Shown here one piece after another: positions 5,577-26,730 of a DNA stretch of 64,000 bases. The notes under the pieces are model-generated. The model searched no databases, was not told the DNA's origin, and worked only from the letters and a program-made list of their open reading frames with translations. This DNA is from an uncultured bacterium. Its GTDB lineage: Bacteria > Oederibacteriota > JAAXVQ01. A program made the translations under genes and the position numbers. The stretch is taken from contig CAZQGO010000001.1 of assembly GCA_964593065.1 (NCBI GenBank), positions 350,082 to 414,081 on the forward strand. Reading direction: 5' to 3'. Positions within the stretch are counted from its first letter, which is position 1; each line of letters begins with the position of its first letter.

Positions 5577-6650
5577 TTATTGATCCCCGCCGGCCGGCAG
5601 GAATTTATCGGCCACGGCGCAGACCAGGGTCTCGCAGACGGCGCCCGTGGCCTGTTTGGGGCCGTAGTGCAGCAGAAATTCCCGGCATTGGCGGTAGGCG
5701 GGGCCGTTCCACAATTCCGGCAAGTCCAGCTTCAGGATGTTCCCCAGCGAAAACTTGTCTTCGTACACCGTGCAGCAGGGAAATACCTCGCCGTTCCAAT
5801 GGATGATCATGGACGTGAACGGCTGGCAACACCACTCCGGCAGGCGCGGATGCAGACGAATCGCGCCCGGGGAGGAAGGCGGAGGCGCCTGCGGCCCGGA
5901 GGCGGCGGGGCCGTCCGCGTTCCGGTTTTCCTGCGCGCGATGCAGGCCGGATTTCCAGTCTTCGCGGCCCCAAACGTCCATGAGGCTGAAGCGCAGGGTC
6001 ACGCCCAGGTCCGAGGCCATTTTTTGCGCCAGGGCCTGCTCGTGCTCGTTGAAGCGGTTGACGAGGAATCCCCAGATGATTTCCGGCGTTTTCGCCCGGA
6101 GCCGCAGTTTGGCTTGCTGCAATCGGGACAGGTTGGCAAGGGCCCGCGAAAAGCTCCCCCCCACGCGGTATTTTCCGTAGGTGGCCTGGCTGGCGCCGTC
6201 CATGGAGGCGGACAGGCAGGACAAGCCCGTGGCCACGACGGCCTCGGCGTCTTTCGGGCTCAAGGCCCGGAAGGTCAGGTTCGAGTGCAGGCTGGTGTAA
6301 ATGCCCTTCGCGGACGCGGCGGCGACCATCCGCAGAATGTCCCGGTTCAAAAAAGGTTCCCCGTAGTTGAACAGGCCGATGTTGTTGGCGTGCGGGGAAA
6401 TTTTTTCCAGGATGACCTGGTAATTTTCCCAGCTTAAAAAACCCCTCGCCGTACCACGGCGGCGAAGCCCGGTGGGACAGAAAGGACAGCGCAGATTGCA
6501 CAGGTTCCCGGTCTCGATATAGTAATTCCGGGGCGGGGGACAGGTCAGTTCAGACGCAGGCATTGCGGGCCTTTCGGAAAGAATCGGCGGGTGCCAGGGA
6601 TCAGGGACGATCCAGGGGTTCGGAACCGAACCGGCACCTGCCAGAAGCAA
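5577..6650 (-). CDS. radical SAM enzyme with C-terminal Cys-rich auxiliary-cluster (SPASM/twitch-like) domain
   Basis: CNLRCPFCP (CxxxCxxC) lies near the N-terminus. The C-terminal Cys cluster is CCQPF...FPCC...C...C. The ORF as given starts with TTG at 6650. An in-frame ATG at 6563 (MPASELTCPPP...) is an alternative start. Confidence 0.8.
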   Translation of the reverse strand: MLLAGAGSVPNPWIVPDPWHPPILSERPAMPASELTCPPPRNYYIETGNLCNLRCPFCPTGLRRRGTARGFLSWENYQVILEKISPHANNIGLFNYGEPFLNRDILRMVAAASAKGIYTSLHSNLTFRALSPKDAEAVVATGLSCLSASMDGASQATYGKYRVGGSFSRALANLSRLQQAKLRLRAKTPEIIWGFLVNRFNEHEQALAQKMASDLGVTLRFSLMDVWGREDWKSGLHRAQENRNADGPAASGPQAPPPSSPGAIRLHPRLPEWCCQPFTSMIIHWNGEVFPCCTVYEDKFSLGNILKLDLPELWNGPAYRQCREFLLHYGPKQATGAVCETLVCAVADKFLPAGGDQ

Positions 6651-8587: not shown

Positions 8588-8616
8588 TTGACTTACCTTT
8601 CGGAAATAATGATAAT
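8588..8616 (+). promoter_or_regulatory. sigma70-like promoter (TTGACT-N17-GATAAT) in the divergent intergenic region
   Basis: TTGACT at 8588-8593, a 17-nt spacer, GATAAT at 8611-8616. It sits where the six-frame ORF nominally starts, which argues that the true CDS start is downstream. Confidence 0.3.
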
Positions 8617-8818
8617 AATGATTCGCGCCGAATGCGACTCAGGCAATGTCTGGACACGAGCGTTTCGTCCGTTTGCTCATCACCAACTTTCCACGCCGGA
8701 TGAAATCCAATATCCAAAAGGGCGGTTTTGGTTGGCGGTTGCCCGGGAAATCTTTGGCCGTGGGGGACACGTTCGGCTCCGGACCCGCGTTGAAAGCCAC
8801 GAAAAAGGTGTGCGGCTC

Positions 8819-11800
8819 ATGGAAGAGAGGCAGGAACAAGCACCGGCACCGTCCCTGGCTGCGGTTTTTCACGATCTCCCGGACGATTTTTGGTACTGGT
8901 GCCTCACCGAAGGCATCCAGCGCGGCTGGCTGACCGATCTGCTGCCCTGGCTGCCGCCGGAAGGCGTCCAGGAAAAGTACACCGGGCGGTCGGGGGAGCC
9001 GGCCCTGTCCCAGGCTTTCGGCTTTTTCCAGCTCTGCAAGCAGGAACTCGGCCGCCTGGGCCTCGAATTGGCACCGGATTCACGGGTGTTGGATTTCGGC
9101 TGCGGTTGGGGCCGCATCACCCGTTTGCTCCTGAAGGACGTCCATCCCCGGAACGTGACGGGCGTGGACATGCTCGACGAAGCCATCCGCATTTGCCGCA
9201 AGTCGAATTTTCCCTGCGCTTTCGAGCGCATTTCCCCCCGGCCGCCCATTTTTTACGCCGACGAATCCCTGGATTATATTTTCGCCTATTCGGTCTTCAC
9301 CCATTTGTCCGAGGAATGCGCCCGCGCCTGGATCGGGGAGTTCCGGAGGATCCTCAAGCCCGGGGGCGTGGTTTTCGCCACCATCAGGCCGCCGGAGGCC
9401 GTGGAGGAGTTCGCCCGGCTGCGCCAGGTCCCGGACATCCCTTCCTCCGGGCAAACCGCGGCGCAGGCTTTCCAGGACTTGGACCGGGTGCGGCGGGACT
9501 ATGCGGCCGGGCGCTTTGTTTTCGAACCCTCGCCAGGAGCCTCCCCGGAAGGCGCCTGCTTCGGCGAAGCCCTCATTCCGCCGGCCTATGCGCAGCGGAA
9601 TTATTCCGGCCATTTTCCCGAAATCCGCATCCTGGAGTCCCGGGACCACGGGCGGTTCGACCAGCACCTGCTGATTCTGCGCAAAGCCCCCCGGCCCGTC
9701 GCGTCGGCGGCAGGACCGGCGGCCGAGCCGGCTCTCCCCCCGGCGCGCGAGCCGGAGCTGCCCTGGACCGGGGAACGTCTGGTCACCTCCCTGCGGGGAC
9801 CCATTGTCGGCGAACATTTGCACCGCTATGCCCTGGCCGCCGAACTGGTCGCCGGCCGGACGGTGCTGGACGTGGCCTGCGGCGAGGGCTACGGTTCGCA
9901 CCTGCTGGGACGCCGGGCCCGGCGCGTCCTGGGCGTGGACAATTCCCCGGAGACCATCGAGCACGCGCGCGCGAAGTATGGGCGGGAGAATGTGGAATTC
10001 CAGGTGGGTTCGGCGGAAGCCATCCCCCTGCCGGACCGGTCCGTGGACGCCGTCGTCACCTTCGAAACCATCGAGCACCTGCGCGCTCCCGGCCCCTTCC
10101 TGGCCGAGATTCGCCGCTGCCTGGGACCCCGGGGCGTGCTGGTCATTTCCTCTCCGGACCGGGAGCCCTACCAAGAGGCCACGCCCGAGCCCAATGTTTT
10201 CCATGAGCAGGAATTGACCCATGCGCAGTTCGCCGAACTGCTACGGGGAACATTCCGGCACGTGTTCCTGGCGCGCCAGCGCTTTCTCCAGGGGTCCTTC
10301 ATGGCGCCGGACCAGGAGGATCCCGCGCCCCGCCTGGGCACCTTTTCCGGCAATTTCAACGAGGTATCCTTCCATCCCGGCGTGAACAGGGGCATCTATT
10401 CCATCGCCGTGTGTTCCGACGCCCCCCTGGAACGCGTTCCCATGGGGGTGTTTGAAAGCCCCCTGGCCAACGCGGACGGGGCCTGGACCCAGTGGGCCCA
10501 GGTGCAGCGGCGCCTGCAGGAATTGAGCGAGGAATACCGGCAGCTGGCCGCCGCGCACGCCCTGGGACAGCGCGTGAACGCCGTCCTGGGATTTTTACGC
10601 GCCGAGCAGGAAAAGGACCGCGTGCTCCAGGAAACACGCCTGGAGCAGGAGCGCGAAAGCAACCGGAACCTTTCGGAAGCCCTGGAGCAAGCCCGGGAGC
10701 GGATCGGAGAGCTGGGCCGCGAACTCGAACGGGTCAATTCCCAGAAGCACCAGATGCTGCTGACCCTGCAGCAGTTCGAACAACGCCTCCACTGGCAGCG
10801 GCACCGGCATCAGAAAATGCGGACGCAGTTGATCGTGGCCAACAATCTGGCGCGCACGTTCCGCGGCCTGCTCCCGGCCTGCAAACGCGCGAGCCTGAGG
10901 AAATGGCAGCGGATCCGCCGCCGGGTCCTTCCTCCCGCCCAAGCCCGGCGCGGCCTGCTGCACGGGCTGTGGACCGTGCTGGATTGGCCGTGGCGCGCCT
11001 GGCATGCCCGCCCGAGCCAGCGCCGCCTCGTGCGCGCCAGCGGACTGTTCGACGCCGCTTATTACCTCGAACAGGTTCCCGACCTGGCGGCCCGCGGCCT
11101 GGATCCCGTGAAGCACTACCTGGCGCGCGGAGCCGAGGAGGGGCGGAATCCCAGCGCCTTGTTTGACACGTCCTTCTACCTGCGCAGCAACCCGGACGTG
11201 GACGAGTTCGGCGTCAACCCGCTCGTGCATTTCATCCAATCCGGAATGGACGAGGAACGCGATCCTTCGCCGGCCTTCGACACGCAGTATTACCTGGAAA
11301 ACAATTCCGACCTGGTGGCGGCCGGAGTGTCCGCGTTCCCGCATTATTATCACACCGGACGCCGCGAGGGCCGGCTGGCGCATGCGCATGGCGCCGGGGG
11401 CGACTCCCGGGCCGAATCCGGCGGCTCCTCGCCCGCCCCGGCCGCTCCGGCCGGCGAGGACGGGGACGGGCGCGAGCCCGTTGAACCGCGCTGGCGTTCC
11501 ACGGTGGATTGGCGCCGGCGTCCGCAGCCGGAACCCGGCAACGTGAAATGCATTGCCTTCTACCTGCCCCAGTTTCACCCCGTGCCGGAGAACGACGAAT
11601 GGTGGGGGGAAGGCTTCACCGAGTGGGAAATGGTCTCGCGGGCGGCGCCGCTGTTTCACGGGCATTACCAGCCGCACCGGCCCGCGGAACTCGGCTTTTA
11701 CGACCTGCGCGTTCCGGAGGTCCGGGAAAAGCAGGCGGCCATGGCCCGGGCCTTCGGCATCCAGGGCTTCTGCTACTATTATTACTGGTTCAACGGCCAG

Positions 11801-13831
11801 CGCCTGCTCGACCGGCCGCTGCAGGAGGTCCTGGCTTCGGGCCGGCCTGACTTTCCATTCTGCATCTGCTGGGCCAACGAGAACTGGACTCGCCGCTGGG
11901 ACGGCCAGGACCAGCAGGTGCTCATTGAGCAGGGGCATTCCTTCGAGTCGGACGTGGCTTTCATCCGGGACGTGATCCCCATCCTGAAAGACCCCCGCTA
12001 CCTCCGCTTCGAGGGCAAGCCCGTGCTGCTGGTCTATCGCGCGGACAAACTGCGGGATCCGCGGGCCACGGCCCGGGCCTGGCGCGACCTGTGCGCCCAG
12101 GCCGGAATCCCGGGCCTGCATCTGTGCATGGTGGAGATTCTGGGCACCGGCCAGCCCCAGCAGCGGGGATTCGACGCGCTGGTGGAATTTCCTCCCAACA
12201 GTTACCTGTGCAAGAACATCGCGCACTCGGTCCGGGGACTGCATCCCCAGTTTCGGGGGCAGATTTTCGACTACCGGGAACTGGCCGGCCAGTCCCTGCA
12301 GCACCGGCCGGAGGGTTATCCGTACCACCGCACCGTGATGGGCATGTGGGACAACACCGCACGCACGGGCCAGGATGCGCGGATTTTCCATCACGCCCGG
12401 CCCGACCTCTACGAGCACTGGCTGGAAACGTTCGTGCGGGAAGCCAAAAGCCGGCGGGACCAGGAAGCCTTGATTTTCATCAACGCCTGGAACGAATGGG
12501 GAGAGGGCGCGCACTTGGAGCCCGACCGGCGCCACGGATTCGGCTGGCTGGAAGCCACGGCCCGCGCCCTGTCCGCGAAGCCCGGCGCGGCCCGGGCGCT
12601 TCCGGAGCAGCCGCCGGCCGCCGCCGGCCCGGAGCCGTCCGGGGCGGAAGCGTCGCACGCGACGGAGGGCGGGGAGGAGGCGGCCGCGGCCGGAAAAAAC
12701 GGCGGGATCGTGCTGGTCGTGCACAACGCCCTGCAATTCGGCACGCAGTTTCTTTCCCTGGCGCTGGCCGAGACCTGGCTGCGGCGGTACCGCGAAAAAA
12801 TGTTCGTGCTCCTCAAGCAGGGAGGCGAACTGGAACCGGCCTTTGCCCGGACCGGCCATGTGATCAACCTCGAATCCGAAACCCGCCGTTTGGGCTCCGA
12901 GGCGGCGGCCCTGGAAAGGATCCGGCGCCGCCTGCAAGCGGCCGGAGTCGACCGCTGCCTGTGCAACAGCGTGGTCACCGGGGACCTGGCCCGGTTTTTC
13001 AAGCAGCAGGGCTGCCGGGTGGTTTCGCTGGTGCATGAATTGCCCGCGCTCACCGCCACCTACGGGTACGAGCACCTGGCCGAGTGGCTGGCGGCCTCCT
13101 CCGACCGCCTGATCTTCCCGGTCGAAGCCGTCCGCCGCCCTTTTGTCGAGCGCTTCGCCGTGCCGGACGAAAAGACGCTCATCCGGCCCCAGGGAATCAT
13201 GCGGCCCAATCCGTACCTGCAGCGCCGGGAATGGGCGCGGCGCACGCTGCAGAAACGCCACCAATTGGGCCCGGATTTCAAGCTGGTTCTAAACTGCGCC
13301 TACGGCGACCTGCGCAAGGGCCCGGACCTTTTCCTGGCCGTGGCCCGGCAGGTGCTGCAGCAGCGGGCGGCGGACAACGTTCATTTCGTCTGGGCCGGGG
13401 CTTTTGAAAGGGAACTCAAGGCCTGGTGCGAACACGACCGGAGGGGCATGGCCTTTGCCGACCGGGTGCATTTCATCGGCTTCCAGCAGGACGACGCCGT
13501 CTACCAGGCGGCGGCCGACATTCTGGCCTTAACCTCCCGCGAGGACCCCCTGCCGCATGTCATGCTCTCGGCCATGGAGGCCGGCGTGCCCGTGGTCGCG
13601 TTTGCCGGCAGCGGCGGCGCGGATGAAATCCTGGCGGACGGCCGGGGCGTCCTGGTGCCGTATCTGGACGTGGCCGGCATGGCCGGCGCAATCGCGGGGC
13701 TGCTGCTGGACGAGGAGCGGCGACGGGACATCGGCCGCCGGGCCGCGGAGACGATCGCGCGCTCGTTCCGGTTTGAGGATTACGTGGATTTCATCGCGCG
13801 GCAATTCGAAAAGGTCCCGGCGGGGCGGTAA
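8819..13831 (+). CDS. giant multidomain glycan-modifying protein: 2x class I SAM methyltransferase, coiled coil, 3 tandem ~38-aa repeats, WbsX-like domain, GT4 glycosyltransferase domain
   Basis: MT1 is VLDFGCGWGRIT. MT2 is VLDVACGEGYGSHLL. A heptad-rich, coiled-coil-like segment (ELSEEYRQLAAA...RLEQERESNRNLSEALEQARERIGELGRELERVNSQKHQ) follows. Three repeats run FDxxYYLxxNPDVxxxGxxPLxHFxxxGxxEGRxPS. The WbsX-type motif is CIAFYLPQFHPVPENDEWWGEGFTEWEMV. The C-terminal GT4-like segment is HFIGFQQDD...LPHVMLSAMEAGVPVVAF. The ORF is open from 8588 (TTG). I prefer the in-frame ATG at 8819 (MEERQEQ...) because a promoter-like element overlaps 8588-8616. Confidence 0.8.
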   Translation: MEERQEQAPAPSLAAVFHDLPDDFWYWCLTEGIQRGWLTDLLPWLPPEGVQEKYTGRSGEPALSQAFGFFQLCKQELGRLGLELAPDSRVLDFGCGWGRITRLLLKDVHPRNVTGVDMLDEAIRICRKSNFPCAFERISPRPPIFYADESLDYIFAYSVFTHLSEECARAWIGEFRRILKPGGVVFATIRPPEAVEEFARLRQVPDIPSSGQTAAQAFQDLDRVRRDYAAGRFVFEPSPGASPEGACFGEALIPPAYAQRNYSGHFPEIRILESRDHGRFDQHLLILRKAPRPVASAAGPAAEPALPPAREPELPWTGERLVTSLRGPIVGEHLHRYALAAELVAGRTVLDVACGEGYGSHLLGRRARRVLGVDNSPETIEHARAKYGRENVEFQVGSAEAIPLPDRSVDAVVTFETIEHLRAPGPFLAEIRRCLGPRGVLVISSPDREPYQEATPEPNVFHEQELTHAQFAELLRGTFRHVFLARQRFLQGSFMAPDQEDPAPRLGTFSGNFNEVSFHPGVNRGIYSIAVCSDAPLERVPMGVFESPLANADGAWTQWAQVQRRLQELSEEYRQLAAAHALGQRVNAVLGFLRAEQEKDRVLQETRLEQERESNRNLSEALEQARERIGELGRELERVNSQKHQMLLTLQQFEQRLHWQRHRHQKMRTQLIVANNLARTFRGLLPACKRASLRKWQRIRRRVLPPAQARRGLLHGLWTVLDWPWRAWHARPSQRRLVRASGLFDAAYYLEQVPDLAARGLDPVKHYLARGAEEGRNPSALFDTSFYLRSNPDVDEFGVNPLVHFIQSGMDEERDPSPAFDTQYYLENNSDLVAAGVSAFPHYYHTGRREGRLAHAHGAGGDSRAESGGSSPAPAAPAGEDGDGREPVEPRWRSTVDWRRRPQPEPGNVKCIAFYLPQFHPVPENDEWWGEGFTEWEMVSRAAPLFHGHYQPHRPAELGFYDLRVPEVREKQAAMARAFGIQGFCYYYYWFNGQRLLDRPLQEVLASGRPDFPFCICWANENWTRRWDGQDQQVLIEQGHSFESDVAFIRDVIPILKDPRYLRFEGKPVLLVYRADKLRDPRATARAWRDLCAQAGIPGLHLCMVEILGTGQPQQRGFDALVEFPPNSYLCKNIAHSVRGLHPQFRGQIFDYRELAGQSLQHRPEGYPYHRTVMGMWDNTARTGQDARIFHHARPDLYEHWLETFVREAKSRRDQEALIFINAWNEWGEGAHLEPDRRHGFGWLEATARALSAKPGAARALPEQPPAAAGPEPSGAEASHATEGGEEAAAAGKNGGIVLVVHNALQFGTQFLSLALAETWLRRYREKMFVLLKQGGELEPAFARTGHVINLESETRRLGSEAAALERIRRRLQAAGVDRCLCNSVVTGDLARFFKQQGCRVVSLVHELPALTATYGYEHLAEWLAASSDRLIFPVEAVRRPFVERFAVPDEKTLIRPQGIMRPNPYLQRREWARRTLQKRHQLGPDFKLVLNCAYGDLRKGPDLFLAVARQVLQQRAADNVHFVWAGAFERELKAWCEHDRRGMAFADRVHFIGFQQDDAVYQAAADILALTSREDPLPHVMLSAMEAGVPVVAFAGSGGADEILADGRGVLVPYLDVAGMAGAIAGLLLDEERRRDIGRRAAETIARSFRFEDYVDFIARQFEKVPAGR

Positions 13832-13842
13832 AATCCCCCGCG

Positions 13843-14086
13843 GCCTCATCCAGAGGATGAGGCTTAGGGTTCGGGGGCGGTGAAGCCCCCGACTGAAGTT
13901 GGAAGGAAAGCAGGACGTATCGGCTCAGGCCCCGTCAGGGGCCAGGGGTGGTCAGGGGAAAATTCCCCTGACTCCATGAGGGATGACCGCGAGCCGAGGA
14001 GTCCTTTCCGCTTTCGGCGAGTGCCAGAGGGGAAGCCTCCCCTATGGAGAGCGGAGCGAAAGCGGCTGGGGAACCTGTGGTTCCCC
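13843..14086 (+). ncRNA. candidate cis-regulatory structured RNA element (unclassified), copy A, in the 5' leader of the MBOAT gene
   Basis: Three parts. A 5' hairpin GCCUCAUCC-AGA-GGAUGAGGC. A conserved core UAGGGUUCGGGGGCGGUGAAGCCCCCGACUGAAGUUGGAAGGAAAGCAGGACG with an internal 8-bp stem UCGGGGGC/GCCCCCGA. A 3' perfect hairpin GGGGAACC-UGU-GGUUCCCC at 14068-14086. A near-identical element is present at 25004..25115. Confidence 0.35.
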
Positions 14087-14128
14087 TGAAAGTACCCACC
14101 CGGGCGTGGGCACGAAAGGAAAGCGTGC

Positions 14129-15556
14129 ATGGTATTTTCCTCGGTCAGCTTTTTATTTTACTTTCTGCCGGTGGTCCTCCTGGCCTATTTCCTCGTGCGT
14201 CCCGCCTGGCGGAATTTCGTGCTCCTGCTGTCCGGGCTGGTCTTTTACCTCTGGGGCGCGGGTGAAATCGTCTTCATCCTGATGTTGTCCATCGCCTTGA
14301 ATTGGGTTTTCGGGCTGATGGCCGCTGCGGCCCGCGACAGCGGGGAACGGTGGCGCCGGAACCTGCCGGTGATCGCCTCCGTGATCGTGAACCTGGGCAT
14401 CCTGGGCTATTTCAAGTACACGAATTTTTTCGTCGCCCAGATCAACCATCTCGGGGAAATCACGCGGGCCGGTTTCATGCCGGTCTATCTCGCGCCCATC
14501 CTGCTGCCCATCGGCGTGTCCTTCTTCACGTTTCAGGCCATGAGCTACGTGATCGACGTGGCCCAGGGCCGCGTGGAGCCCCTGCAAAACCCGGTGGACT
14601 TCGGCATGTACATCGCCATGTTTCCCCAGCTGGTGGCCGGGCCGATCGTCCGCTACCATGAAATCGCCCCGCAAATCCACCGGCGCGGCGTCACCTGGGA
14701 AGGCTTCTCCGCCGGCATGGTGCGTTTCATTCACGGCCTGGTCAAAAAGGTGGTTTTCGCGGATTCGATCGGGCTGCTGGCCGACCAGGCTTTCAAGGCG
14801 CCCGAGCGCTTGAGCGCCGGCGGCGCCTGGCTGGGGCTGCTGGCCTTCACCATCCAGGTCTATTTCGATTTCTCGGGCTATTCGGACATGGCCATCGGCC
14901 TGGGCCAGATGTTCGGCTTCCGCCTGCCCGAGAATTTCAACCGGCCCTATTCGGCCGTGAGTTTCACGGACTTCTGGCGGCGCTGGCACATGACCCTTTC
15001 GCACTGGTTCCGCGATTACGTCTACATTCCCCTGGGCGGATCGCGGCGGGGACCCTGGCGCACCTACCTCAACCTCGTCATCGTCTTTTTCCTGGTGGGA
15101 TTCTGGCACGGCGCCAACTGGACGTTCGTGGTCTTCGGCCTCTACCACGGCTTCTGGATGAGCCTGGAGCGGGCCACCGGGCGCCGGTTTGCCGGAGAGA
15201 TGAAACACCCCCTGGTCCGCCGGGCGCTCACTTTCTTCCTCATCCTCCTGGGCATGACCCTGTTTCGTGCCGAGAACATGCATCAGGCCTGGACCTATTA
15301 CCAGACCTTGTTCGGCCTGCGGGGCGGCACGCAGTTTTTGGCCCCGGGCACGGATTGGCAGGGTCTGGTCTTTCTGGCCCTGGGCAGCCTGGTGGTTTTC
15401 CTGCCCGACAACCTCGTGGTGGGCAGGCTCCTGGAGCAGTCCGAAAAACGCGCCGTGGCCTGGATGCGGCTCGGCCTGGCCACCGTGGCCCTGACCTTCG
15501 CCATCATGCTGATCGTCAGCCGGAATTACACTCCCTTCATCTACTTCCAATTCTGA
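14129..15556 (+). CDS. MBOAT family membrane-bound O-acyltransferase (AlgI/DltB-like)
   Basis: Polytopic protein. FWRRWHMTLSHWFRDYVYIPLGG carries the conserved His motif of MBOAT proteins. Size 475 aa. Confidence 0.9.
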   Translation: MVFSSVSFLFYFLPVVLLAYFLVRPAWRNFVLLLSGLVFYLWGAGEIVFILMLSIALNWVFGLMAAAARDSGERWRRNLPVIASVIVNLGILGYFKYTNFFVAQINHLGEITRAGFMPVYLAPILLPIGVSFFTFQAMSYVIDVAQGRVEPLQNPVDFGMYIAMFPQLVAGPIVRYHEIAPQIHRRGVTWEGFSAGMVRFIHGLVKKVVFADSIGLLADQAFKAPERLSAGGAWLGLLAFTIQVYFDFSGYSDMAIGLGQMFGFRLPENFNRPYSAVSFTDFWRRWHMTLSHWFRDYVYIPLGGSRRGPWRTYLNLVIVFFLVGFWHGANWTFVVFGLYHGFWMSLERATGRRFAGEMKHPLVRRALTFFLILLGMTLFRAENMHQAWTYYQTLFGLRGGTQFLAPGTDWQGLVFLALGSLVVFLPDNLVVGRLLEQSEKRAVAWMRLGLATVALTFAIMLIVSRNYTPFIYFQF

Positions 15557-18054
15557 TGACCCGGAAACGCTCCCTCACCCTCTGCGCCGCCGTCGGCCTT
15601 TTCTGGCTGTGCCTGCCGCTGCCGCTGACGCCCTGGCTCAGCCACTACAACCGGGACTTCATCGAAAACGTGGAAAAGCGCCTGCCCGCAACCTGGCCCC
15701 ACCTCGGCGGACCCCGGGACCTGCTGCGGGCCCAAACCTACCGGCGCATCAGCGCGTTCCTGCAGGACCGCATGCCGTTTCGCGACTGGCTGATCACGGG
15801 CGAGCGGCGGCTCGCGTACCTGTTTTTTAAACGCCGGAGTTTCGGCCAGGTGGATGTGGGCCGGGACGGATGGCTCTTCATCCGCGACGCCTATTACCGG
15901 CCCACGGAAAACGAACAGAAGGTGCGCCAGGTGCTGCGCGAGGTGGATTATTTCCTGACCCGCCGGCCGCCGGGGGAAGCCAGCCTGCTGCTGGTGATCG
16001 GGCCCGACAAGGACTCCATTTACCCCGAAAAAATGAGCGCCACCTGCCTGGCGTACCAGGCCAAGGCCGACAACCGGAGAAAGCTCATCCGCGAGTTCTT
16101 CACGCGCCCCCACGGCGGACGGGTGTTGGGCTTGTGGTCCGCGTATCTGCGGGAAAAGAAGACTTCGCCGGTATTGCTGTTTTATCCCAAGGACACGCAC
16201 CATACCCCCACCGGCGCGCTGATCATGTGCCGCGGCATCATCGAGGCCGTGCAGCCGGGACTGTGGCGCCCGGAGGAGGTCCGGAACAAGGGCCGGCAGA
16301 CCAAGGTGGGGGATTTAAGCCTCCTGGCCGGCCTGGGCTGGGGGATCGACGTCGTGCAGGATTGCGACGTCGTACGCCCGGGCGTCCAGCTGGTGAAGCG
16401 CATCGCCCTGGATCACACCGGCAGCTGGAAGGATTCGGCCCGCTACCTTTCCCGCAGCGACACGCGCCCCCTGATCCCGGGCCGGACCGCGATCCTGCAT
16501 GATTCCCTGCTCGGGGCCAACCGGGAAACCCTGCGGCAGTTTTTCCGGGACGTCACCTTCATCCATTACGAAAAAATCTACAGCGCGGACAAACTCCAGG
16601 CCGTGATGCGGCAGTACGACCGGGTGATCATGGAGGTGGTGGAACGCGAATCCGTCGGCATCTTGGAGAAGCTTCTCGACGGTTACAACTACCACGTCCT
16701 GCGCGAGCTGGGACCCGGGGATTTTTCGGCCGTCACTTCCAACCAGCAGGTCAAATTATCCCCGGCCGGGACGGAGTTGGTGGCCGAGGCCTCGGGCTAC
16801 GACCCCATGATCTTCATTCCCAGCCCCCACCTGCGCCTGAATACGGAGTACCTGGTGTGGATCGACCTGGAATCCACGGCGGACACCTACTGCCAGCTGT
16901 TTTACCAGACCAATGATGTCCCCCGCTTCGAGGACGCGCAAAGCCTCATCAAGAAGGTCGACGTGGGCCGGAATCTGCTGACGTTCCATCTGCCCGCCGG
17001 CAGCATCTGGTATCCCCTGCGGTTGGACCCCGGCCTGCAGCCGGGCCGCTACCGCTTCAAGGCTTTTCAGTACCGGCAGCTTCTGCCCCCGCCGCAAGGC
17101 GGGGAAGGGGAGGACATCCCGGAGAATGCGGTTTCCACCACGCTCTTCTTCGCCTGGGGGCCGGTCAGCCGGCTCCTGGCCACGCCGCGCGGATTCGTTG
17201 CCAGCGATCCCCGGACGAGACTGGAGAATGTGCCGGCCGGCATTCTCGTCACGGCGGCCGGGGAAGACCCGCAAATCAGCCTGCCCGTCCTGCCGGACCT
17301 GGTGGCGGGAACGCAACCGGTCCTGGAAATCGATCTCGAAGCCTCCACGGACACGTTCAGCCAGTTGTTTTATCTGACCCCCGGCGTGCCGGCCTACCGG
17401 GAAGACCTGAGCGTCAAGCAGGACATCCACCGCGGCGAGAACCGCCTGCGTTTCGTCCTGCCGCCGGAAAGCCTGCGGTTTCCCCTGCGCTTCGACCCCG
17501 GCGGGAAACCCGGAACGTACCTGTTGCGCTTCGTCAGCTTGGGCGGCGCGTGGCCGGCCAGCCTGCAGGCCGAGGCGGTCCGGCCGGGAATGCCTCCCCC
17601 CGCCCGTGCCAAACTGAATATGTTATACTTGATCGGCCGGAAAAAACTCTGGACCGGGGCGGAACTTCTGCCCCGGCTCCTGTGGCGGCAACAGGTCAAC
17701 CTCAAAGCTGCGGGCCCGGGTCTGGCGGTCCAGGTCCTGGGAAACGACCCGATCCTGGGCCTGCCGGCCTTCGAACCCCCCCGGACGGAAGGCTATTACC
17801 AGGTCAGCCTGAAACTGTTTTCGCCCCGCGCCACGGAGGCCCAGTTGTATTACCTCGAGCCCGGGGAGAAAAATTACCGCGAGGAGGCCAGCGCGCGCTG
17901 CGGAGTCCGCCCGGGACTCAATACCCTGGTTTTTCTCGTGGAGGGGCGGCAGCTCCTGCAGCCCCTGCGACTCGATCCGGCCTGCCATCCCGGGGAATAC
18001 CGGCTGGACGCGCTGGAAATCGAGGAAGTCACGACCGGCGACCTCCGGCGCTGA
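15556..18054 (+). CDS. AlgJ/AlgX-like (SGNH-like) O-acetyltransferase partner with three C-terminal ~100-aa repeat domains
   Basis: N-terminal signal anchor. A GRDGWLF motif and a DTHHT (DxHWT-like) motif are typical of AlgJ/AlgX/AlgV. The C-terminal triple repeats each begin ...QLFY(Q/L)T..VP.(F/Y)(E/R)(D/E).... ATG at 15556 overlaps the MBOAT stop (ATGA). The six-frame ORF nominally starts at 15355, inside the upstream gene. Confidence 0.75.
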   Translation: MTRKRSLTLCAAVGLFWLCLPLPLTPWLSHYNRDFIENVEKRLPATWPHLGGPRDLLRAQTYRRISAFLQDRMPFRDWLITGERRLAYLFFKRRSFGQVDVGRDGWLFIRDAYYRPTENEQKVRQVLREVDYFLTRRPPGEASLLLVIGPDKDSIYPEKMSATCLAYQAKADNRRKLIREFFTRPHGGRVLGLWSAYLREKKTSPVLLFYPKDTHHTPTGALIMCRGIIEAVQPGLWRPEEVRNKGRQTKVGDLSLLAGLGWGIDVVQDCDVVRPGVQLVKRIALDHTGSWKDSARYLSRSDTRPLIPGRTAILHDSLLGANRETLRQFFRDVTFIHYEKIYSADKLQAVMRQYDRVIMEVVERESVGILEKLLDGYNYHVLRELGPGDFSAVTSNQQVKLSPAGTELVAEASGYDPMIFIPSPHLRLNTEYLVWIDLESTADTYCQLFYQTNDVPRFEDAQSLIKKVDVGRNLLTFHLPAGSIWYPLRLDPGLQPGRYRFKAFQYRQLLPPPQGGEGEDIPENAVSTTLFFAWGPVSRLLATPRGFVASDPRTRLENVPAGILVTAAGEDPQISLPVLPDLVAGTQPVLEIDLEASTDTFSQLFYLTPGVPAYREDLSVKQDIHRGENRLRFVLPPESLRFPLRFDPGGKPGTYLLRFVSLGGAWPASLQAEAVRPGMPPPARAKLNMLYLIGRKKLWTGAELLPRLLWRQQVNLKAAGPGLAVQVLGNDPILGLPAFEPPRTEGYYQVSLKLFSPRATEAQLYYLEPGEKNYREEASARCGVRPGLNTLVFLVEGRQLLQPLRLDPACHPGEYRLDALEIEEVTTGDLRR

Positions 18055-18071
18055 GCGGAAAGGGCGACCCT

Positions 18072-18839
18072 TTGAACCGCAACACCCGTCAGTTCCTGGA
18101 TCTGATCCTCGTTCTCACCCAGAAGGACCTGAAGGTGAGGTACAAGAACAGCGTGCTGGGGTATCTGTGGTCCGTGGCCAATCCCCTGGCTTTCGCCCTC
18201 GTGTTCTACTTTGCCTTCAAGGTCATCATGCGGGTGGACATGGAGGATTACGCCCTGTTCCTCATCGTCGGCCTGTTTCCCTGGCAGTGGTTTTCCAATT
18301 CCATCAACATCTCCTCCACGGTGTTCCTGTCCAACGCCAGCATCATCAAGAAGGTGAGTTTCCCGCGCAACATCATTCCCTTAAGCATCGTATTGCAGGA
18401 CATGATCCATTACATCCTGTCCCTGCCCGTGATCGGGCTCTTCCTCCTGCTCTATCAAAAACCCGCGCAGGCGGCCTGGCTCTGGGGCATCCCGCTGCTG
18501 CTGGCCGGGCAATTCATGCTCATCTACGGCCTGGCCCTGGCCGTGTCCAGCATCAACCTCTTTTTCCGCGACCTGGAACGAATCGTCGGCATATTGATGA
18601 TGATCGTTTTTTATTGCACCCCCATCCTCTACCCGCTGGACATGATTCCCGCGCGGTTTCAGCACTGGGTGGGGTTGAATCCTTTCGCGACGGCGATCTT
18701 GGGCTGGCGGACCCTGCTTTTGGACGGACGCCTGGATCCCGTCGCCGCCGGACTCACCCTGGCCTACGGCCTGGCGGCTTTGGGCCTGGGCACCTGGATC
18801 TATTCCCGCCTGGCCTGGAAGTTTGCGGAGGTCCTATGA
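18072..18839 (+). CDS. wzm: ABC-2 type polysaccharide exporter permease (Wzm/KpsM-like)
   Basis: NRNTRQFLDLILVLTQKDLKVRYKNSVLGYLWSVANPL is the canonical ABC-2 N-terminal motif. Six TM segments. Candidate TTG start at 18072, preceded by GGAAAGGG. The six-frame ORF is over-extended back to 17550. Confidence 0.8.
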   Translation: MNRNTRQFLDLILVLTQKDLKVRYKNSVLGYLWSVANPLAFALVFYFAFKVIMRVDMEDYALFLIVGLFPWQWFSNSINISSTVFLSNASIIKKVSFPRNIIPLSIVLQDMIHYILSLPVIGLFLLLYQKPAQAAWLWGIPLLLAGQFMLIYGLALAVSSINLFFRDLERIVGILMMIVFYCTPILYPLDMIPARFQHWVGLNPFATAILGWRTLLLDGRLDPVAAGLTLAYGLAALGLGTWIYSRLAWKFAEVL

Positions 18840-19633
18840 GCGACCCCGTCATCCGGTTCGAGTCCGTGGGCAAGCGTTATCCCCAGTACCATCACATCAC
18901 CGCGGGCTTCAAGCCCTTCCTGTTCCGCTGGCTGTGCCGCCTCGGGCGAACCGGCTCCGAAACCTTCGAAGCCTTAAGGGCGGTGACGTTCGAGGTCCGC
19001 CCGGGCGAAACACTCGGCATCATCGGCCGCAACGGTTCGGGCAAGAGCACGGTCCTGGGGCTGATCGCCGGCGTGCTCCGGCCGACTTCCGGAACCGTGC
19101 GGGTGCGGGGCAGGGTGGCTCCGCTGCTGGAACTCGGCGCGGGATTTCATCCCGAACTCACCGGCCGCGAGAACATATTTTTAAACGGGATCCTGCTGGG
19201 GCTGACGCGCGCCGAGGTCGCGCGGAAGCTCGATGCCATCATCGCCTTCTCGGAACTCGGGGAGTTCATCCACGAGCCCATCCGCATCTATTCCAGCGGC
19301 ATGCTGGCCCGCCTGGGTTTCGCCGTGATCTCGTCCCTGGATCCGGAAATCCTGCTGGTGGATGAAATTCTGGCCGTGGGGGACATGGATTTCCAGAAAA
19401 AATGCGTGGACCGCGCCCTCGAGTTCAAGCGCCGCGGCGTCACCATTATTTACGTCTCGCACGCCTTGGACCAGGTTCAGGAATTGTCCGACCGGGCCTT
19501 GTGGCTCGATGAGCATACGGTTCAGGCCTGGGGGAACCCGGCCGAAGTCGTGGACGCCTACCGGCGGCATTCATCCCCGCAGCGGGGACCGGACGGCGGC
19601 CGGCCCGAAGCGCCGGGCGGGGAAGCCCCATGA
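18836..19633 (+). CDS. wzt: ABC transporter ATP-binding protein (Wzt/KpsT-like, no C-terminal carbohydrate-binding domain)
   Basis: Walker A GRNGSGKST, signature YSSGMLARLGF, Walker B ILLVDEILAVGD. Only 265 aa. ATG overlaps the wzm stop (ATGA). Confidence 0.9.
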   Translation: MSDPVIRFESVGKRYPQYHHITAGFKPFLFRWLCRLGRTGSETFEALRAVTFEVRPGETLGIIGRNGSGKSTVLGLIAGVLRPTSGTVRVRGRVAPLLELGAGFHPELTGRENIFLNGILLGLTRAEVARKLDAIIAFSELGEFIHEPIRIYSSGMLARLGFAVISSLDPEILLVDEILAVGDMDFQKKCVDRALEFKRRGVTIIYVSHALDQVQELSDRALWLDEHTVQAWGNPAEVVDAYRRHSSPQRGPDGGRPEAPGGEAP

Positions 19634-20529
19634 CCCGCCAGCCGCCGCTCGTCAGCATCATCATCCCGTGCTGCAACGACGGGAAGTACCTGGACGAGGC
19701 CGTGACCTCGGCGCTGCGGCAGACCCACGCGGCGCTGGAGATCATCATCGTGGACGACGGCTCCCGGGATCCCTACACGGTCCGGCTGTTGCGGACCTAT
19801 CAGCGGCCCCGCACCCGCGTCTTCCACACGCCCAACCGCGGCCCGGCGGCGGCGCGAAATTTCGCCATCCGCCGGGCCGCGGGAAAATACCTCCTGCCCT
19901 TGGACGCCGACGACCGCATCGCCCCCAGCTACGTCGCCCGGGCCGTTGCCTGTTTGGAGCGGGACCCCCGGCTCGGCATCGTCTACTGCCGGGCCCGGCG
20001 CTTCGGAGACCAGCGGGGGGAATGGCGCCTGCCGGAATATTCCCTGGGCCGCATGCTCATGGACAACATGATCTTCTCCACGGCCTTGTTCCGGAAAAAG
20101 ACCTGGGAGCGGGTCGGAGGCTACAACCCCAACATGGTTTACGGCCTGGAGGACTACGATCTGTGGCTCTCCATTTTGGAGAAGGAAAAATGCCGGGTGC
20201 ACCGCATCAATCAAATTCTGTTTTATTACCGCAGCCGGCGGGACTCGCGCACCGCGAAGTTGAAAGCCGAGGGCCTGGAGCAGGCCATGTTCCGGCAGTT
20301 ATTCCGCAACCACCGCCAATTTTACCTGCGGCATCTCGAAGCCTATTTCGAGGGGCGGATGCAGCTGATCCGCGATCTCAACCGCTTCGGGCGGCTGATT
20401 GAAACGTCTCCGGCTTTGAAGCTCGAGAGGCGGTTGGACCGGTTTCCCCTGGGACGGAGCCTCTACGGCGGAGTCCTGGGCGCGTTCGCGGCGCTGCTGG
20501 ACCTGGCGCGCCGCCTCGGAGGGAAGTGA
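19630..20529 (+). CDS. family 2 glycosyltransferase (GT-A)
   Basis: VSIIIPCCNDGKYL...IIIVDDGS...LDADD motifs. ATGA overlap with wzt. Confidence 0.85.
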   Translation: MTRQPPLVSIIIPCCNDGKYLDEAVTSALRQTHAALEIIIVDDGSRDPYTVRLLRTYQRPRTRVFHTPNRGPAAARNFAIRRAAGKYLLPLDADDRIAPSYVARAVACLERDPRLGIVYCRARRFGDQRGEWRLPEYSLGRMLMDNMIFSTALFRKKTWERVGGYNPNMVYGLEDYDLWLSILEKEKCRVHRINQILFYYRSRRDSRTAKLKAEGLEQAMFRQLFRNHRQFYLRHLEAYFEGRMQLIRDLNRFGRLIETSPALKLERRLDRFPLGRSLYGGVLGAFAALLDLARRLGGK

Positions 20530-20532
20530 GGC

Positions 20533-21612
20533 ATGCTGATCCTGACCAGCCTGTGCGCCAATTATCTCCCCAAGGCGCGGGTCCTGGCCGAAAGTGTCAA
20601 ACGCCATTCGCGGAACCGCGTCTGGGTATGCCTGGTGGAAAAAACGGCTCCGCCGGAGTTGACCTCCCGGGAGCCCTGGGACGGCCTGGTGCTGGCGAAG
20701 GACCTGGGCATTTCCAATTTCGGAAGGTTTATTGCCGGACGGTCCCGGCTGGAGGCGGCCACGGCGGTCAAGGCGCAGTGGTTCCTGCACGCGCTCGCGC
20801 GCTTCCCGCACGAAAAGGACTTTCTCTTTCTCGACCCCGACATGACGGTCTACACGGATTTCCGCCCGCTGCAGCGGCTGCTCCGGCGCCACCCCCTGAT
20901 CGTAACCCCGCACTTGCTGACGCCGCACAACCTGGAGATGGAAGTGAGCGCCTTAAACCACGGCGCCTACAACCTGGGATTTCTCGCCCTGCGGCGCGGG
21001 CCGCGCAGCGGGGCTTTTCTCGCCTGGTGGCGGGAGCGGCTCCAGTTCGCCTGCTATGACGACCGGCCGCACGGGTTGTTCACGGATCAGAAGTGGGCCG
21101 ACCTGGTCCCGTCGCTGTTTGACGCCCACGTGCTCCGCGACCCCGGCTATAACGTGGCGACCTGGAACCTGGGGGAACGGCGCCTGACTCCCGTGGCGGG
21201 CGGGCTGGCCGCGAACGGCCGGCCCCTGCAGTGCCTGCATTTTTCGGGGTTCGATCAAGGCACGTTCCGGTGGGCCGCGGAACGCTGGGGAGGGCGGAGC
21301 CGGCCCCGGTTGCGGGCTTTGGCAGGCGCCTATGCCCGCGCTTTGGCCCGGCACGGGCAAAAGGACCTCGGGAACCGGCCTTGGAGCTACGACCGCTTGG
21401 ATGACGGCCGCCTTCTCCCGCTTGGCCTGCGCGCGGCCTTGCGGCGGCCGGAGGTTTTGCCCGGCGAGGATCCGTATGCCTTGAGCCTGCGCGAACTGCG
21501 CCGCCGCCTGCCCTGGTCGGCAAGCTGGCCGGGACGGGCGGTGCGCGGCCTGCGGCGGGCCGCAGGGGTGTTTCTGCGGGAGCTGGGAGGCCGCCGCGGC
21601 CGTGGCTTCTAG
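20533..21612 (+). CDS. putative nucleotide-diphospho-sugar transferase (GT-A fold, DXD motif)
   Basis: FLFLDPDM (DxD) sits in a Rossmann-like N-terminal half. No closer family assignment is possible by eye. Confidence 0.5.
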   Translation: MLILTSLCANYLPKARVLAESVKRHSRNRVWVCLVEKTAPPELTSREPWDGLVLAKDLGISNFGRFIAGRSRLEAATAVKAQWFLHALARFPHEKDFLFLDPDMTVYTDFRPLQRLLRRHPLIVTPHLLTPHNLEMEVSALNHGAYNLGFLALRRGPRSGAFLAWWRERLQFACYDDRPHGLFTDQKWADLVPSLFDAHVLRDPGYNVATWNLGERRLTPVAGGLAANGRPLQCLHFSGFDQGTFRWAAERWGGRSRPRLRALAGAYARALARHGQKDLGNRPWSYDRLDDGRLLPLGLRAALRRPEVLPGEDPYALSLRELRRRLPWSASWPGRAVRGLRRAAGVFLRELGGRRGRGF

Positions 21613-25003: not shown

Positions 25004-25115
25004 CGGCCTCATCAACCTGATGAGGCCTGGGGTTCGGGGGCGGTGAAGCCTCCGACTGGAGTAGGAAGGAAAGCAGGACGCGTCAGCGTCCGCGTCCGGG
25101 GAACCTGTGGTTCCC
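25004..25115 (+). ncRNA. candidate cis-regulatory structured RNA element (unclassified), copy B, in the 5' leader of the CBS-domain gene
   Basis: Same 5' hairpin (GCCUCAUC-AACCU-GAUGAGGC), same core (GGGGUUCGGGGGCGGUGAAGCCUCCGACUGGAGUAGGAAGGAAAGCAGGACG) and same 3' hairpin GGGGAACC-UGU-GGUUCCCC (25097-25115) as copy A. The C-to-U change in the core preserves the internal stem as a G-U pair. It lacks the ~150-nt middle insert of copy A. Confidence 0.35.
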
Positions 25116-25144
25116 CGGAGAACATCCATGAGGAGGTGGAAAAC

Positions 25145-25525
25145 ATGTTGCAAGCGCAGGAAGTCATGACCCGCGAAGTCGTCAGCATCAGTCCCGAGGC
25201 CACGCTGTCCGACGCCATCGAACTGTTGCTGGCACGGAAGATCAGCGGCCTGCCCGTGGTGGACCACGAAGGCAAGATTATCGGGATCATCTCGGAGAAG
25301 GACATCCTCAATTTCGCCTTCAGCGGCAACTTGCACAATACGCGGGTCGAGGAGGCCATGACCGCGAAAATCGTCAGCTTTCCCCCGGAGGCCAGCATTG
25401 ATTCCATCGCCCTGGCCATCAGCCAGCACCAGTTCCGGCGGGTGCCCATCGTCCTGGAAGGCAAGGTCGTCGGCATCGTGTCCCGGCGGGACATCATCCG
25501 CGTGGCGCTCCTGGGGAAACGATAG
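25145..25525 (+). CDS. CBS-pair domain protein
   Basis: Two CBS motifs: VMTREVVSISPEATLSDAIELLLARKISGLPVV and AMTAKIVSFPPEASIDSIALAISQHQFRRVPIV. RBS GAGGAGGTGG is upstream of the ATG at 25145. The ORF track start at 24911 is an over-extension. Confidence 0.85.
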   Translation: MLQAQEVMTREVVSISPEATLSDAIELLLARKISGLPVVDHEGKIIGIISEKDILNFAFSGNLHNTRVEEAMTAKIVSFPPEASIDSIALAISQHQFRRVPIVLEGKVVGIVSRRDIIRVALLGKR

Positions 25526-25536
25526 GGGGAAACCCC

Positions 25537-26730
25537 TTAGGGGAAATGCGGGCCCGCGCCGGTGCGGTGAGAGCGGGGAAACTCGGAACGGCGCGCGGGG
25601 GTTTTGCGCAGCGCTTGCCAGAAGTTCCGCAGACGGTGCAGGATTTCGTGCCAGAAGGGCCAGGGATCCGTCCAGGAAAACAACACCCGGACGTGCTTCT
25701 TCCGGAAATTCCGCAGAAAGCCGTATTGCCGGCTGCCCGCCAGGTAGGCCTTGAAATCGTCCGATTCGTAGATCCAGGTCATCCCGGGCCTGGCCTGGAC
25801 CGGGGTGACCGGTTCGTGCCGCAGCAGGCGCACCAGGCTTTCCGGAAAGTTCACGCCCGCCGCGCGCGCCAGCGCGATTTGCAGGTTGAAACGTCCCACC
25901 GTCGGCTCCATGATGAAAAACTGCTTTCTCTCCGGATCGAACTTGTATTCCAAGGATCCGAAGCCGCGGTAGCCCACGGACCGGAAGAGAGCCACGCTGC
26001 GTTCGCAGAGCTCGTTGTCCTGCAAACTGACCGCCAAGCTCGTGCTTCCGGAGAAGCGGGGAAACTGGCGCAGTTTCCTGCCGAGGAAGACCTGTACGGG
26101 ACGGGATTGCTCGTCGAACAACATGAAGCAGAAATACAGCTGGTCGTCCCCGCCCGAGATCCATTCCTGCACGACCAGGGACTGGTAATGCAGCGGGGCC
26201 AGCTGCGGAAGCAGCGCCTGGAGTTCCCCGAAACTGTCAACGCGTTCCGCGTGCATCAGGAAGGGTTTGACCACCAGCGGATAGTCCAGGTTCCGGCCCA
26301 GGCGCAGGAGGGCGTCCGGATCGGGCGCGGTGTGGGTGGCCGCCACGGGCCAGCGGGCTGCCTGGGCCCAGGGATAGAACTTGGCCTTCTGCATCAGGAG
26401 CTCGATCACCGGGTCGTCGGGCAGGAGGAAATCATAGCCCGCGGAAAGTTCGCGGCGATGCCGCGAAACCTCGACCACTTGGGCGTCGCCGGTGAGCAGC
26501 AGGAGCGGGTTGTCCCGGAAGTTCTCCCGCCAGCGAAGCAGGAAGGGCACCAGGCCTCCGGGAGGATGGGTGAGCGTGGCCCGGGGCAGGTTGGAGTAAT
26601 AGGCGGGCCGGCGTACCAGCTTTTCGCCCACGGACCAAATCCGGTGTCCCTGACGCCGCAGAGGCCGCAGGCAACGAAGGGTGGAAAGGGCCGTAGCCGT
26701 GTAGTCCGGAACGACAATATCCATGCTCAA
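25537..26730 (-). CDS. ATP-grasp domain protein (carboxylate-amine/thiol ligase-like)
   Basis: ATP-grasp style segments LVVKP...QEWI.GGDD...GSLEYKFDPERKQFFIMEPTVGRFN. Function unknown. Confidence 0.65.
   Translation of the reverse strand: MSMDIVVPDYTATALSTLRCLRPLRRQGHRIWSVGEKLVRRPAYYSNLPRATLTHPPGGLVPFLLRWRENFRDNPLLLLTGDAQVVEVSRHRRELSAGYDFLLPDDPVIELLMQKAKFYPWAQAARWPVAATHTAPDPDALLRLGRNLDYPLVVKPFLMHAERVDSFGELQALLPQLAPLHYQSLVVQEWISGGDDQLYFCFMLFDEQSRPVQVFLGRKLRQFPRFSGSTSLAVSLQDNELCERSVALFRSVGYRGFGSLEYKFDPERKQFFIMEPTVGRFNLQIALARAAGVNFPESLVRLLRHEPVTPVQARPGMTWIYESDDFKAYLAGSRQYGFLRNFRKKHVRVLFSWTDPWPFWHEILHRLRNFWQALRKTPARRSEFPRSHRTGAGPHFP

Follow-up and report, generated by a model that had tools for sequence, protein, structure and literature searches.

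The spacer between a giant methyltransferase/glycosyltransferase fusion gene and an MBOAT (AlgI-like) gene, within the 64,000-nucleotide stretch of DNA analysed here (the window), holds a structured element (copy A) whose principal blocks recur 5′ of a gene for a CBS-pair protein (copy B), and the question is what kind of element this is. The sequence-only reading of the locus offered three answers, namely a new cis-regulatory RNA, which was its leading idea, a protein-binding operator pair, or a small repeat family. The evidence assembled below points to the third answer; copies A and B are probably members of a lineage-specific, interspersed, modular, multi-hairpin family of co-transcribed intergenic repeats.

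The structural features that had been described for the two copies are all present in the sequence, and copy A does follow directly upon the stop codon of the giant gene (Table 1). A 5′ hairpin (P1), a second stem-loop (P2), a purine tract and a perfect 3′ hairpin (P4) are common to both copies, and each of these blocks occurs exactly twice in the 64-kb window, where 0.00–0.05 occurrences are expected from shuffled sequence. Copy A had been delimited as 13843–14086; its 5′ end is confirmed, whereas at the 3′ side the element runs past 14086 into a conserved tail, which forms the 3′ boundary of the repeat and has the family consensus CTGAAAGCTCCT(AC), the tail of copy A beginning CTGAAAG. P4 of copy A ends 42 nt 5′ of the MBOAT start codon, and the position in P3 that is occupied by the optional domain M1 in copy A is a mere 4-nt loop in short copies. 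Folding, proposed earlier as a check, gave better folds than shuffled sequence for both the copy A region (z = −6.43) and the copy B region (z = −5.41). Against a model of the P1–P2 region, M1 of copy A (13926–14004) obtains a weak score of 14.8 bits, which may reflect an internal duplication or generic hairpin similarity.

Table 1. Features of the two copies and of their flanking genes (positions are those of the window).
Feature	Position	Strand	Remark
Giant methyltransferase/glycosyltransferase fusion gene	8588–13831	+	Stop codon TAA at 13829–13831, ~11 nt before copy A; product of 1747 aa with two SAM-methyltransferase domains, a WbsX glycosyltransferase and a GT4 domain
Copy A, whole element	13843–~14097	+	Between the giant gene and the MBOAT gene
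Copy A, P1 hairpin GCCTCATC-CAGAG-GATGAGGC	13843–13863	+	5′ boundary of the repeat
Copy A, junction J1/2, TTAGGGT	13864–13870	+	
Copy A, P2 stem-loop TCGGGGGC-GGTGAA-GCCCCCGA	13871–13892	+	GC-rich
Copy A, variable junction CTGAAGTT, then conserved purine tract	13893–13917	+	
Copy A, purine tract GGAAGGAAAGCAGGACG	13901–13917	+	Predicted unpaired
Copy A, P3 helix (GGAC...GTCC, CGGCTC...GAGCCG) around optional domain M1	13913–14004	+	M1 consists of two hairpins
Copy A, insert of ~150 nt with further hairpins	13918–14067	+	Between tract and P4
Copy A, optional domain M2, CCGCTTTCG...CGAAAGCGG around GAGGGGAAGCCTCCCC hairpin	14005–14067	+	
Copy A, P4 perfect hairpin GGGGAACC-TGT-GGTTCCCC	14068–14086	+	
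Copy A, 3′ tail TGAAAGTACCC	14087–14097	+	3′ boundary of the repeat
MBOAT (AlgI-like) gene	14129–15556	+	3′ of copy A; ATG at 14129; PF03062, E = 2.7e-33
Copy B, whole element	25005–~25127	+	5′ of the CBS-pair protein gene
Copy B, P1 hairpin GGCCTCATC-AACCT-GATGAGGCC	25005–25027, also delimited as 25006–25026	+	
Copy B, conserved core	25030–25058		
Copy B, P2 stem-loop TCGGGGGC-GGTGAA-GCCTCCGA	25034–25055	+	G-U pair at 25051
Copy B, junction and purine tract	25056–25080	+	Tract at 25064–25080
Copy B, short P3 hairpin GGACGC/GTCA/GCGTCC	25076–25091	+	
Copy B, P4 hairpin and tail	25098–25127	+	P4 at 25098–25116
CBS-pair protein gene	25145–25525	+	3′ of copy B; PF00571, E = 4.4e-34; public gene calls
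ORF of 395 aa after the CBS gene	25537–26730	−	Public gene call, no Pfam on record; overlaps the next ORF
ORF of 430 aa	25546–26838	+	No Pfam match

The earlier finding that the element matches no known riboswitch class is borne out by both modes of an Rfam 15 search. At gathering thresholds the whole window gave 0 matches, and in E-value mode nothing above noise (at most 17 bits, against thresholds of 34–160) was returned for copy A, copy B or the 305-nt copy at site L062. A scan of the GTDB representative genomes, a set without the source genome, for GGTGAA-N16-22-GGAAGGAAAGCAGG gave 36 matches, all of them chance matches without the stem, and two scans of viral contigs likewise gave chance matches only. 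With no match in Rfam and none in species-representative genomes, the family appears to be undescribed, while the kind of element is a known one.

The extent of the family became apparent in metagenomes. Exact-protein look-ups placed proteins of the window on contigs of a JGI metagenome series, and a metagenome scan with the 20-mer GGTTCGGGGGCGGTGAAGCC returned 25 loci, of which 23 were real and almost all came from the sample series of the source organism. Once the same locus in different samples had been collapsed, 16 sites remained besides copies A and B, and a covariance model (R1) built on the 86 nt common to the copies added one degenerate site (L061, 8487–8571), to give at least 19 distinct sites (A, B and 17 more). 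Within the window, R1 run with its filters off found copies A and B only. The copies are ~95% identical, stems included, and the mean column identity over the common 86 nt is 87%; L083, from a different sample, is a clearly more divergent copy. All sites are inferred to lie in one genome, given their common samples and a similar GC3 of ~0.8. Many near-identical short copies thus occupy 19 unrelated intergenic sites, and the sequence outside the P1 and tail boundaries is unrelated among copies.

The copies fall into size classes that differ by optional domains at fixed positions, two of these positions being inside hairpin loops. The 128-nt class, exemplified by copy B, consists of P1, P2, the tract, P3 (GGACGC-AUCG-GCGUCC), P4 and the tail; the 169-nt class (L064a, L066) has the same content plus the 41-nt domain M3 within the P4 loop; the 261-nt class, to which copy A belongs, carries M1 in the P3 loop and M2 between P3 and P4; and the 305-nt class (L062, L065) carries M1, M2 and M3. 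M2 is confined to the long members of the family, always at the same position. In ~290 kb of related sequence P1, P4, M1, M2 and M3 are absent outside family elements and constant in position within them, and the idea of M1, M2 and M3 as independent mini-repeats was rejected for this lack of any occurrence outside the family. Contig L064 carries two copies in minus orientation, at 1880–1965 and 22–107, 1.86 kb apart, which bracket a DUF502 gene and an ORF of 263 aa without a name; in the second copy, which the contig end truncates, the M1 hairpin is the variant GGATCC-TGAAA-GGATCC.

The domain M3 bears directly on the proposed operator pair, that is, on a family of protein-binding sites in double-stranded DNA (an operator, or else a site for a nucleoid protein or for gyrase, as has been proposed for REP/BIME) in which GGGGAACC-N3-GGTTCCCC would be the dimer site. 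The palindrome is perfect in both window copies, its position is intergenic, and some copies lie near promoter-like sites, all of which would suit such a site; at 8 sites, however, M3 lies within the P4 loop and separates the half-sites by 41 nt while the complementarity of the stem is kept, so that a hairpin is preserved and a dimer operator is not. Since a strong strand bias is not expected of a symmetric DNA site either, and the conserved sequence includes more than 120 nt that are not palindromic, this explanation is so improbable as to be remote.

The genes beside the copies, called by GC3 with the backing of Pfam, have no function in common. Copies fill short spacers, in which the stop codon of the upstream gene usually lies −2 to 115 nt before P1 and the next start codon usually follows 4–44 nt after the tail. 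The downstream genes encode, for instance, the MBOAT protein, the CBS-pair protein, an M50 peptidase, DUF4330 and DUF502 proteins, PurE (purE), a rubrerythrin-like protein, SurE (surE), pyruvate kinase (pyk), a GT2 glycosyltransferase, a STAS protein, a class-I GATase, an NadD-like (nadD) cytidylyltransferase and a rod-binding protein. The sequence-only reading had named a dispersed repeat as the outcome that would speak against a regulatory element, and at least 19 sites in short spacers between unrelated genes are essentially that outcome; they favour the small repeat family among its three answers.

Comparison with relatives at the same loci leads in the same direction. The giant gene is followed by genes (14129–21612) for the MBOAT protein, an AlgX-like SGNH protein, an ABC ATPase and a GT2 glycosyltransferase, a predicted polysaccharide-modification cluster that is called conserved because the same gene order recurs in the distant, lower-GC relatives L086 and L088. 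The nearest MBOAT homologues (60–61% identity) keep the order giant methyltransferase/glycosyltransferase, MBOAT, AlgX-like, methyltransferase, ABC2, ABC, GT2. At the corresponding junction, the giant gene–MBOAT spacer of L086 is only 46 nt long and without the element, and that of L088 consists of 314 nt of unrelated AT-rich sequence; none of the syntenic junctions L086–L089 contains the element or a match to R1, and the closest CBS homologue (L085, 76%) has a plain AT-rich leader that lacks it. The family therefore shows presence and absence at orthologous sites, as expected of an interspersed repeat, and the element is a lineage-specific addition to a conserved junction, not a conserved regulator. 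As these relatives are distant (60–61% in MBOAT), the empty sites show lineage specificity and not recent mobility. Among the window proteins, the best non-self matches are 75% identical for FtsH, 76% for CBS and 63% for MBOAT; the best named matches of FtsH are only ~70% identical (Desulfomonilaceae, Thermodesulfobacteriota), and the named matches come variously from Thermodesulfobacteriota, candidate division FCPU426, Elusimicrobia and Phycisphaerales, so that, judged by these matches, no organism sequenced so far is a close relative of the source.

That the MBOAT and CBS genes are controlled by a riboswitch or another ligand-sensing cis-regulator was suggested by the strong structure of the element, by its place 5′ of both genes on their coding strand and by the failure of any known family to account for it. 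The likeness to riboswitches and Rfam leaders in position, multi-helix fold and conserved unpaired nucleotides is real; the element differs from them in that it matches no Rfam family, follows no regulon logic, shows no consistent expression platform and is not conserved at orthologous genes. At least 19 copies precede housekeeping and envelope genes of unrelated function, some of them follow a gene or run antisense to one, an identity of ~95% including the stems is unlike that of paralogous riboswitches, neither a terminator nor a conserved Shine-Dalgarno-sequestering helix was found, and the element is missing upstream of the orthologous MBOAT genes and of the closest CBS homologue elsewhere. 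Copies at unrelated genes and absence from syntenic relatives speak against a gene-specific cis-regulatory RNA, and a riboswitch in particular is very unlikely, to the point of being barely tenable, because regulon logic is lacking, the paralogues resemble one another closely down to their stems, and no sense terminator or consistent ribosome-binding-site helix was found.

The ends of the element give little indication of how it might have moved. Terminal inverted repeats were not found, the 5′ end GCCTCATC not being complementary to the 3′ end GCTCCT(AC), and there is no target-site duplication, the longest word common to a copy's own flanks averaging 3.75 nt as against 3.92 nt for mismatched flanks; the family is therefore not a classical MITE of the Correia, ERIC, RUP or BOX type. 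No transposase candidate occurs in the ~290 kb examined or adjoins any copy, and no conserved target motif (a tetra- or pentanucleotide in such elements) is found 5′ of P1 among the copy flanks, which leaves an IS200/IS605-type (PATE) origin unsupported. Integron attC sites were also considered and rejected, as the ends are unlike the R''/R' core sites (RYYYAAC...GTTRRRY) and the copies are scattered among housekeeping genes without cassette arrays. A non-autonomous derivative of an HUH/Y1 (IS200/IS605-like) or RNA-mediated mobile element, with P1 and P4 as its recognition structures, would nevertheless have some appeal: hairpins at both ends without inverted ends or target duplication are the signature of the IS200/IS605 type, strand-specific insertion would explain the orientation bias described below, and the syntenic junction in relatives is free of the element. 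Yet besides the missing target motif there is no TnpA, TnpB or reverse transcriptase gene beside any copy (~290 kb), no longer element with the same ends and no Rfam match of the omega-RNA or HEARO type, and this origin is decidedly unlikely.

Within the family, variation is distributed unevenly. The P1 stem is paired in 18 of 18 aligned copies with 3 compensatory pairs, and over these 18 copies 98.6% of cells are paired for P1 and P2; for P2 the count is biased because the metagenome scan fixed the 5′ strand of its stem, and its variation consists of G-C to G-U changes only. RNAalifold backs the helices in all size classes. The copy count and covariation analysis proposed earlier has accordingly delivered 19 sites, with sparse covariation that comes mostly from L083 and, in P1, amounts to the 3 compensatory pairs. 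The single core substitution of copy B, C to T at 25051, does give a G-U pair as had been pointed out, although it is a weak argument for an RNA stem because the 3′ strand of P2 is C-rich and C-to-T is the expected transition. An asymmetry between G-U and A-C pairs was likewise uninformative as a strand test, given the fixed 5′ strand of P2 and its C-rich 3′ strand. Deviation from the consensus is 1.5–2.2% in the strands of the P1 stem and 1.6% in the purine tract, as against 25% in the P1 loop, 18% in J1/2, 15% in J2/3 and 57% in the flanks, so that the tract is as conserved as the stems though predicted to be unpaired. Low variation in stems and tract beside high variation in loop and junctions is unlike passive junk and may point to selection acting on the individual copies. 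Optional domains, moreover, occur only at structure-compatible positions and never alone, a placement also expected of a functional RNA with variable peripheral domains. An RNA-level role is possible given this constraint within the family. Pairing of the P1 loop with the variable junction or the flanks followed no pattern, and an 8-codon leader peptide (ATG in P1 to TGA in the P2 loop) was dismissed owing to a 1-nt indel in L063 and L080 and the absence of a ribosome-binding site.

The orientation of the copies suggests that the element is read as RNA. Seventeen sites are co-oriented with the adjacent gene and 2 are antisense (one-sided binomial P = 3.6e-4), and this 17:2 bias, together with helices kept through a few compensatory changes, makes it likely that the element is a transcribed, folded RNA, though not a gene-specific sensor. 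Promoter-like sites differ among copies in where they lie relative to the element, a variability that favours the repeat reading. At L063 a perfect TTGACA-N17-TATAAT promoter-like site (5870–5912) ends 6 nt before P1, so that its transcript would begin with the P1 hairpin; a weaker promoter-like match ends 8 nt before P1 of copy A, and one lies ~60 nt upstream of copy B. At L062, TTGACA-N17-TACACT (2720–2760) follows the element, so that here the element precedes the promoter-like site of the next gene. Motifs of sigma-54 and ECF-type promoters within the element fitted poorly on inspection. A terminator scan found no sense-strand terminator in or after the element; on the opposite strand of copy B (25076–25097, minus), and at the corresponding place in other copies, it flagged the P3 hairpin with the TGCTTTCCTT behind it as terminator-like, and the reverse complement of the element presents the P3 hairpin and then UGCUUUCCUU, that is, a GC hairpin with a U-rich run. 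Of the two antisense sites, L061a has an epimerase gene on one side and a TPR gene on the other, each on the opposite strand, and L076 lies beside an opposite-strand MscS-family gene, its other neighbour being an ORF, likewise opposite, without Pfam support. These rare antisense copies thus sit between co-directional genes on the other strand, a placement that the terminator-like reading may explain.

A course of events consistent with these observations would begin with the element spreading, or being copied, into transcribed spacers by a route that leaves neither inverted ends nor target duplication; mobility as such is presumed, and the absence of inverted ends, of duplication and of a candidate transposase in ~290 kb counts against it. 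Co-transcribed with its flanking genes, the element would fold as a P1-P2-tract-P3-P4 RNA. The sense orientation would be the one mainly tolerated, since antisense copies, reading as terminator-like, could be polar inside operons, which is a candidate cause of the strand bias. Its effect on the MBOAT and CBS genes would then be generic and not signal-specific; stable hairpins are able to shield the ends of an mRNA from RNases, and the anti-Shine-Dalgarno-like tail (GCUCCU) and the Shine-Dalgarno-like tract (AGGAAGGAAAG) may modulate ribosome access to the next cistron. A translational effect through tail or tract pairing is possible on the modelled folds, and any effect on mRNA stability or translation is probably only incidental.

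A small share of the probability is nevertheless kept for a functional RNA module, because of the uneven conservation and the structure-compatible placement of domains. The element could be a portable post-transcriptional control module whose tract would bind a global factor (a CsrA-like protein, an sRNA or the 30S subunit), binding of which would set the pairing of the tail with the tract against its pairing with the ribosome-binding site of the next gene, so that many genes would answer to one signal. To this possibility, which carries a minor but appreciable chance, the conserved and predicted unpaired tract with its three GGA motifs lends support, as do the orientation bias, a 3′ end 4–44 nt before start codons at most sites, and the insertion of domains only where helices are preserved. 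Among the copies given partition-function folds, 5 have the tail paired to the Shine-Dalgarno region that follows it and 2 have it paired to the tract, and L069 and L062 show possible compensatory changes between tract and tail; a tract–tail long-range helix was rejected all the same, because other copies contradict these two possible compensations. Such a module would further have to accommodate the lack of a common theme among downstream genes, the two antisense copies, the copy upstream of a promoter-like site, a tract that is not conserved in the divergent relative L083, tail pairing that is inconsistent among copies, and the absence of the element at the same junction in relatives. There is a rather small chance of a broader form, in which a portable RNA module with a tract or hairpins read by a global RNA-binding factor or the ribosome couples dozens of unrelated cistrons to one signal, having spread strand-specifically (as ssDNA or RNA) without inverted ends or duplications.

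As an intergenic repeat family, the element has several counterparts among described repeats. ERIC elements exist in size variants produced by internal insertions or deletions at fixed sites. The present family resembles ERIC in being small, structured, intergenic and, presumably, co-transcribed, and in having size variants; it differs in forming a chain of at least 4 local hairpins and not one long imperfect palindrome, in having neither inverted ends nor duplication, in its strong strand bias and in the absence of sequence similarity. ERIC (or IRU, 127 bp) is a small structured repeat that occurs only in transcribed intergenic regions and is co-transcribed (PMC2229807), possesses short inverted ends and a TA duplication (PMC2229807 Table 1), and affects mRNA stability in an orientation-dependent manner (PMC2229807, PMC3049150). 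The BOX elements of Streptococcus pneumoniae (67–637 bp) have variable internal modules and extensive secondary structure, lie between genes, are co-transcribed and are thought to affect the expression of the co-transcribed genes (PMC3049150). The present family is likewise modular, structured and intergenic, but where BOX has inverted ends, target duplications and tandem boxB modules, its optional domains are single and nested in hairpin loops, and it is GC-rich, with no relation to BOX in sequence. CIR (Caulobacter/Brucella intergenic repeat) is listed without terminal inverted repeats (PMC2229807 Table 1) and is therefore comparable as a small intergenic repeat, a likeness by description and not by sequence; it differs in its DNA motif, its TA termini and its host organisms. 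REP/BIME, which are GC-rich extragenic palindromes within transcription units, are able to stabilise the mRNA upstream of them or to attenuate transcription (PMC3049150, PMC3184786); a REP sequence is a single palindrome of ~35 nt, and REP sequences occur in mosaics and are moved by RAYT transposases, in contrast to elements of at least 128 nt with a fixed order of distinct hairpins. Transcripts of the ERIC, BOX, REP and CIR type form stable stem-loops that can stabilise, destabilise or attenuate neighbouring mRNA, depending on orientation (PMC2229807, PMC3049150, PMC3184786).

For annotation, the repeat-family reading removes a false riboswitch candidate. It also brings to light a repeat family that appears undescribed, in a GC-rich lineage of uncultured bacteria that has been little sampled. 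The unusual traits of the family are the lack of inverted ends and duplications, the fixed and structure-compatible domains, the 17:2 orientation bias and the conserved unpaired tract; if these reflect selection on the RNA, one structured module would be wired into many mRNAs. The repeat-family reading further explains why public assemblies of the source organism break at spacers with the element, a repeat-induced fragmentation that could mislead its binning and annotation. Public metagenome contigs break inside the element, L002 starting at window position 25060 and L055 at 13918, as is usual where an assembly graph contains a repeat; the ends of L064, L078 and L082 also lie inside the element or at its edge. 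Between samples, differences are too few for a comparison of SNP density in element and flanks, with one locus showing an excess inside the element: L059 and L062, one locus in two samples, have 4 differences in the 304-nt element and 3 in 5967 nt of flanks, which could stem from gene conversion between copies or from assembly mixing of repeats.
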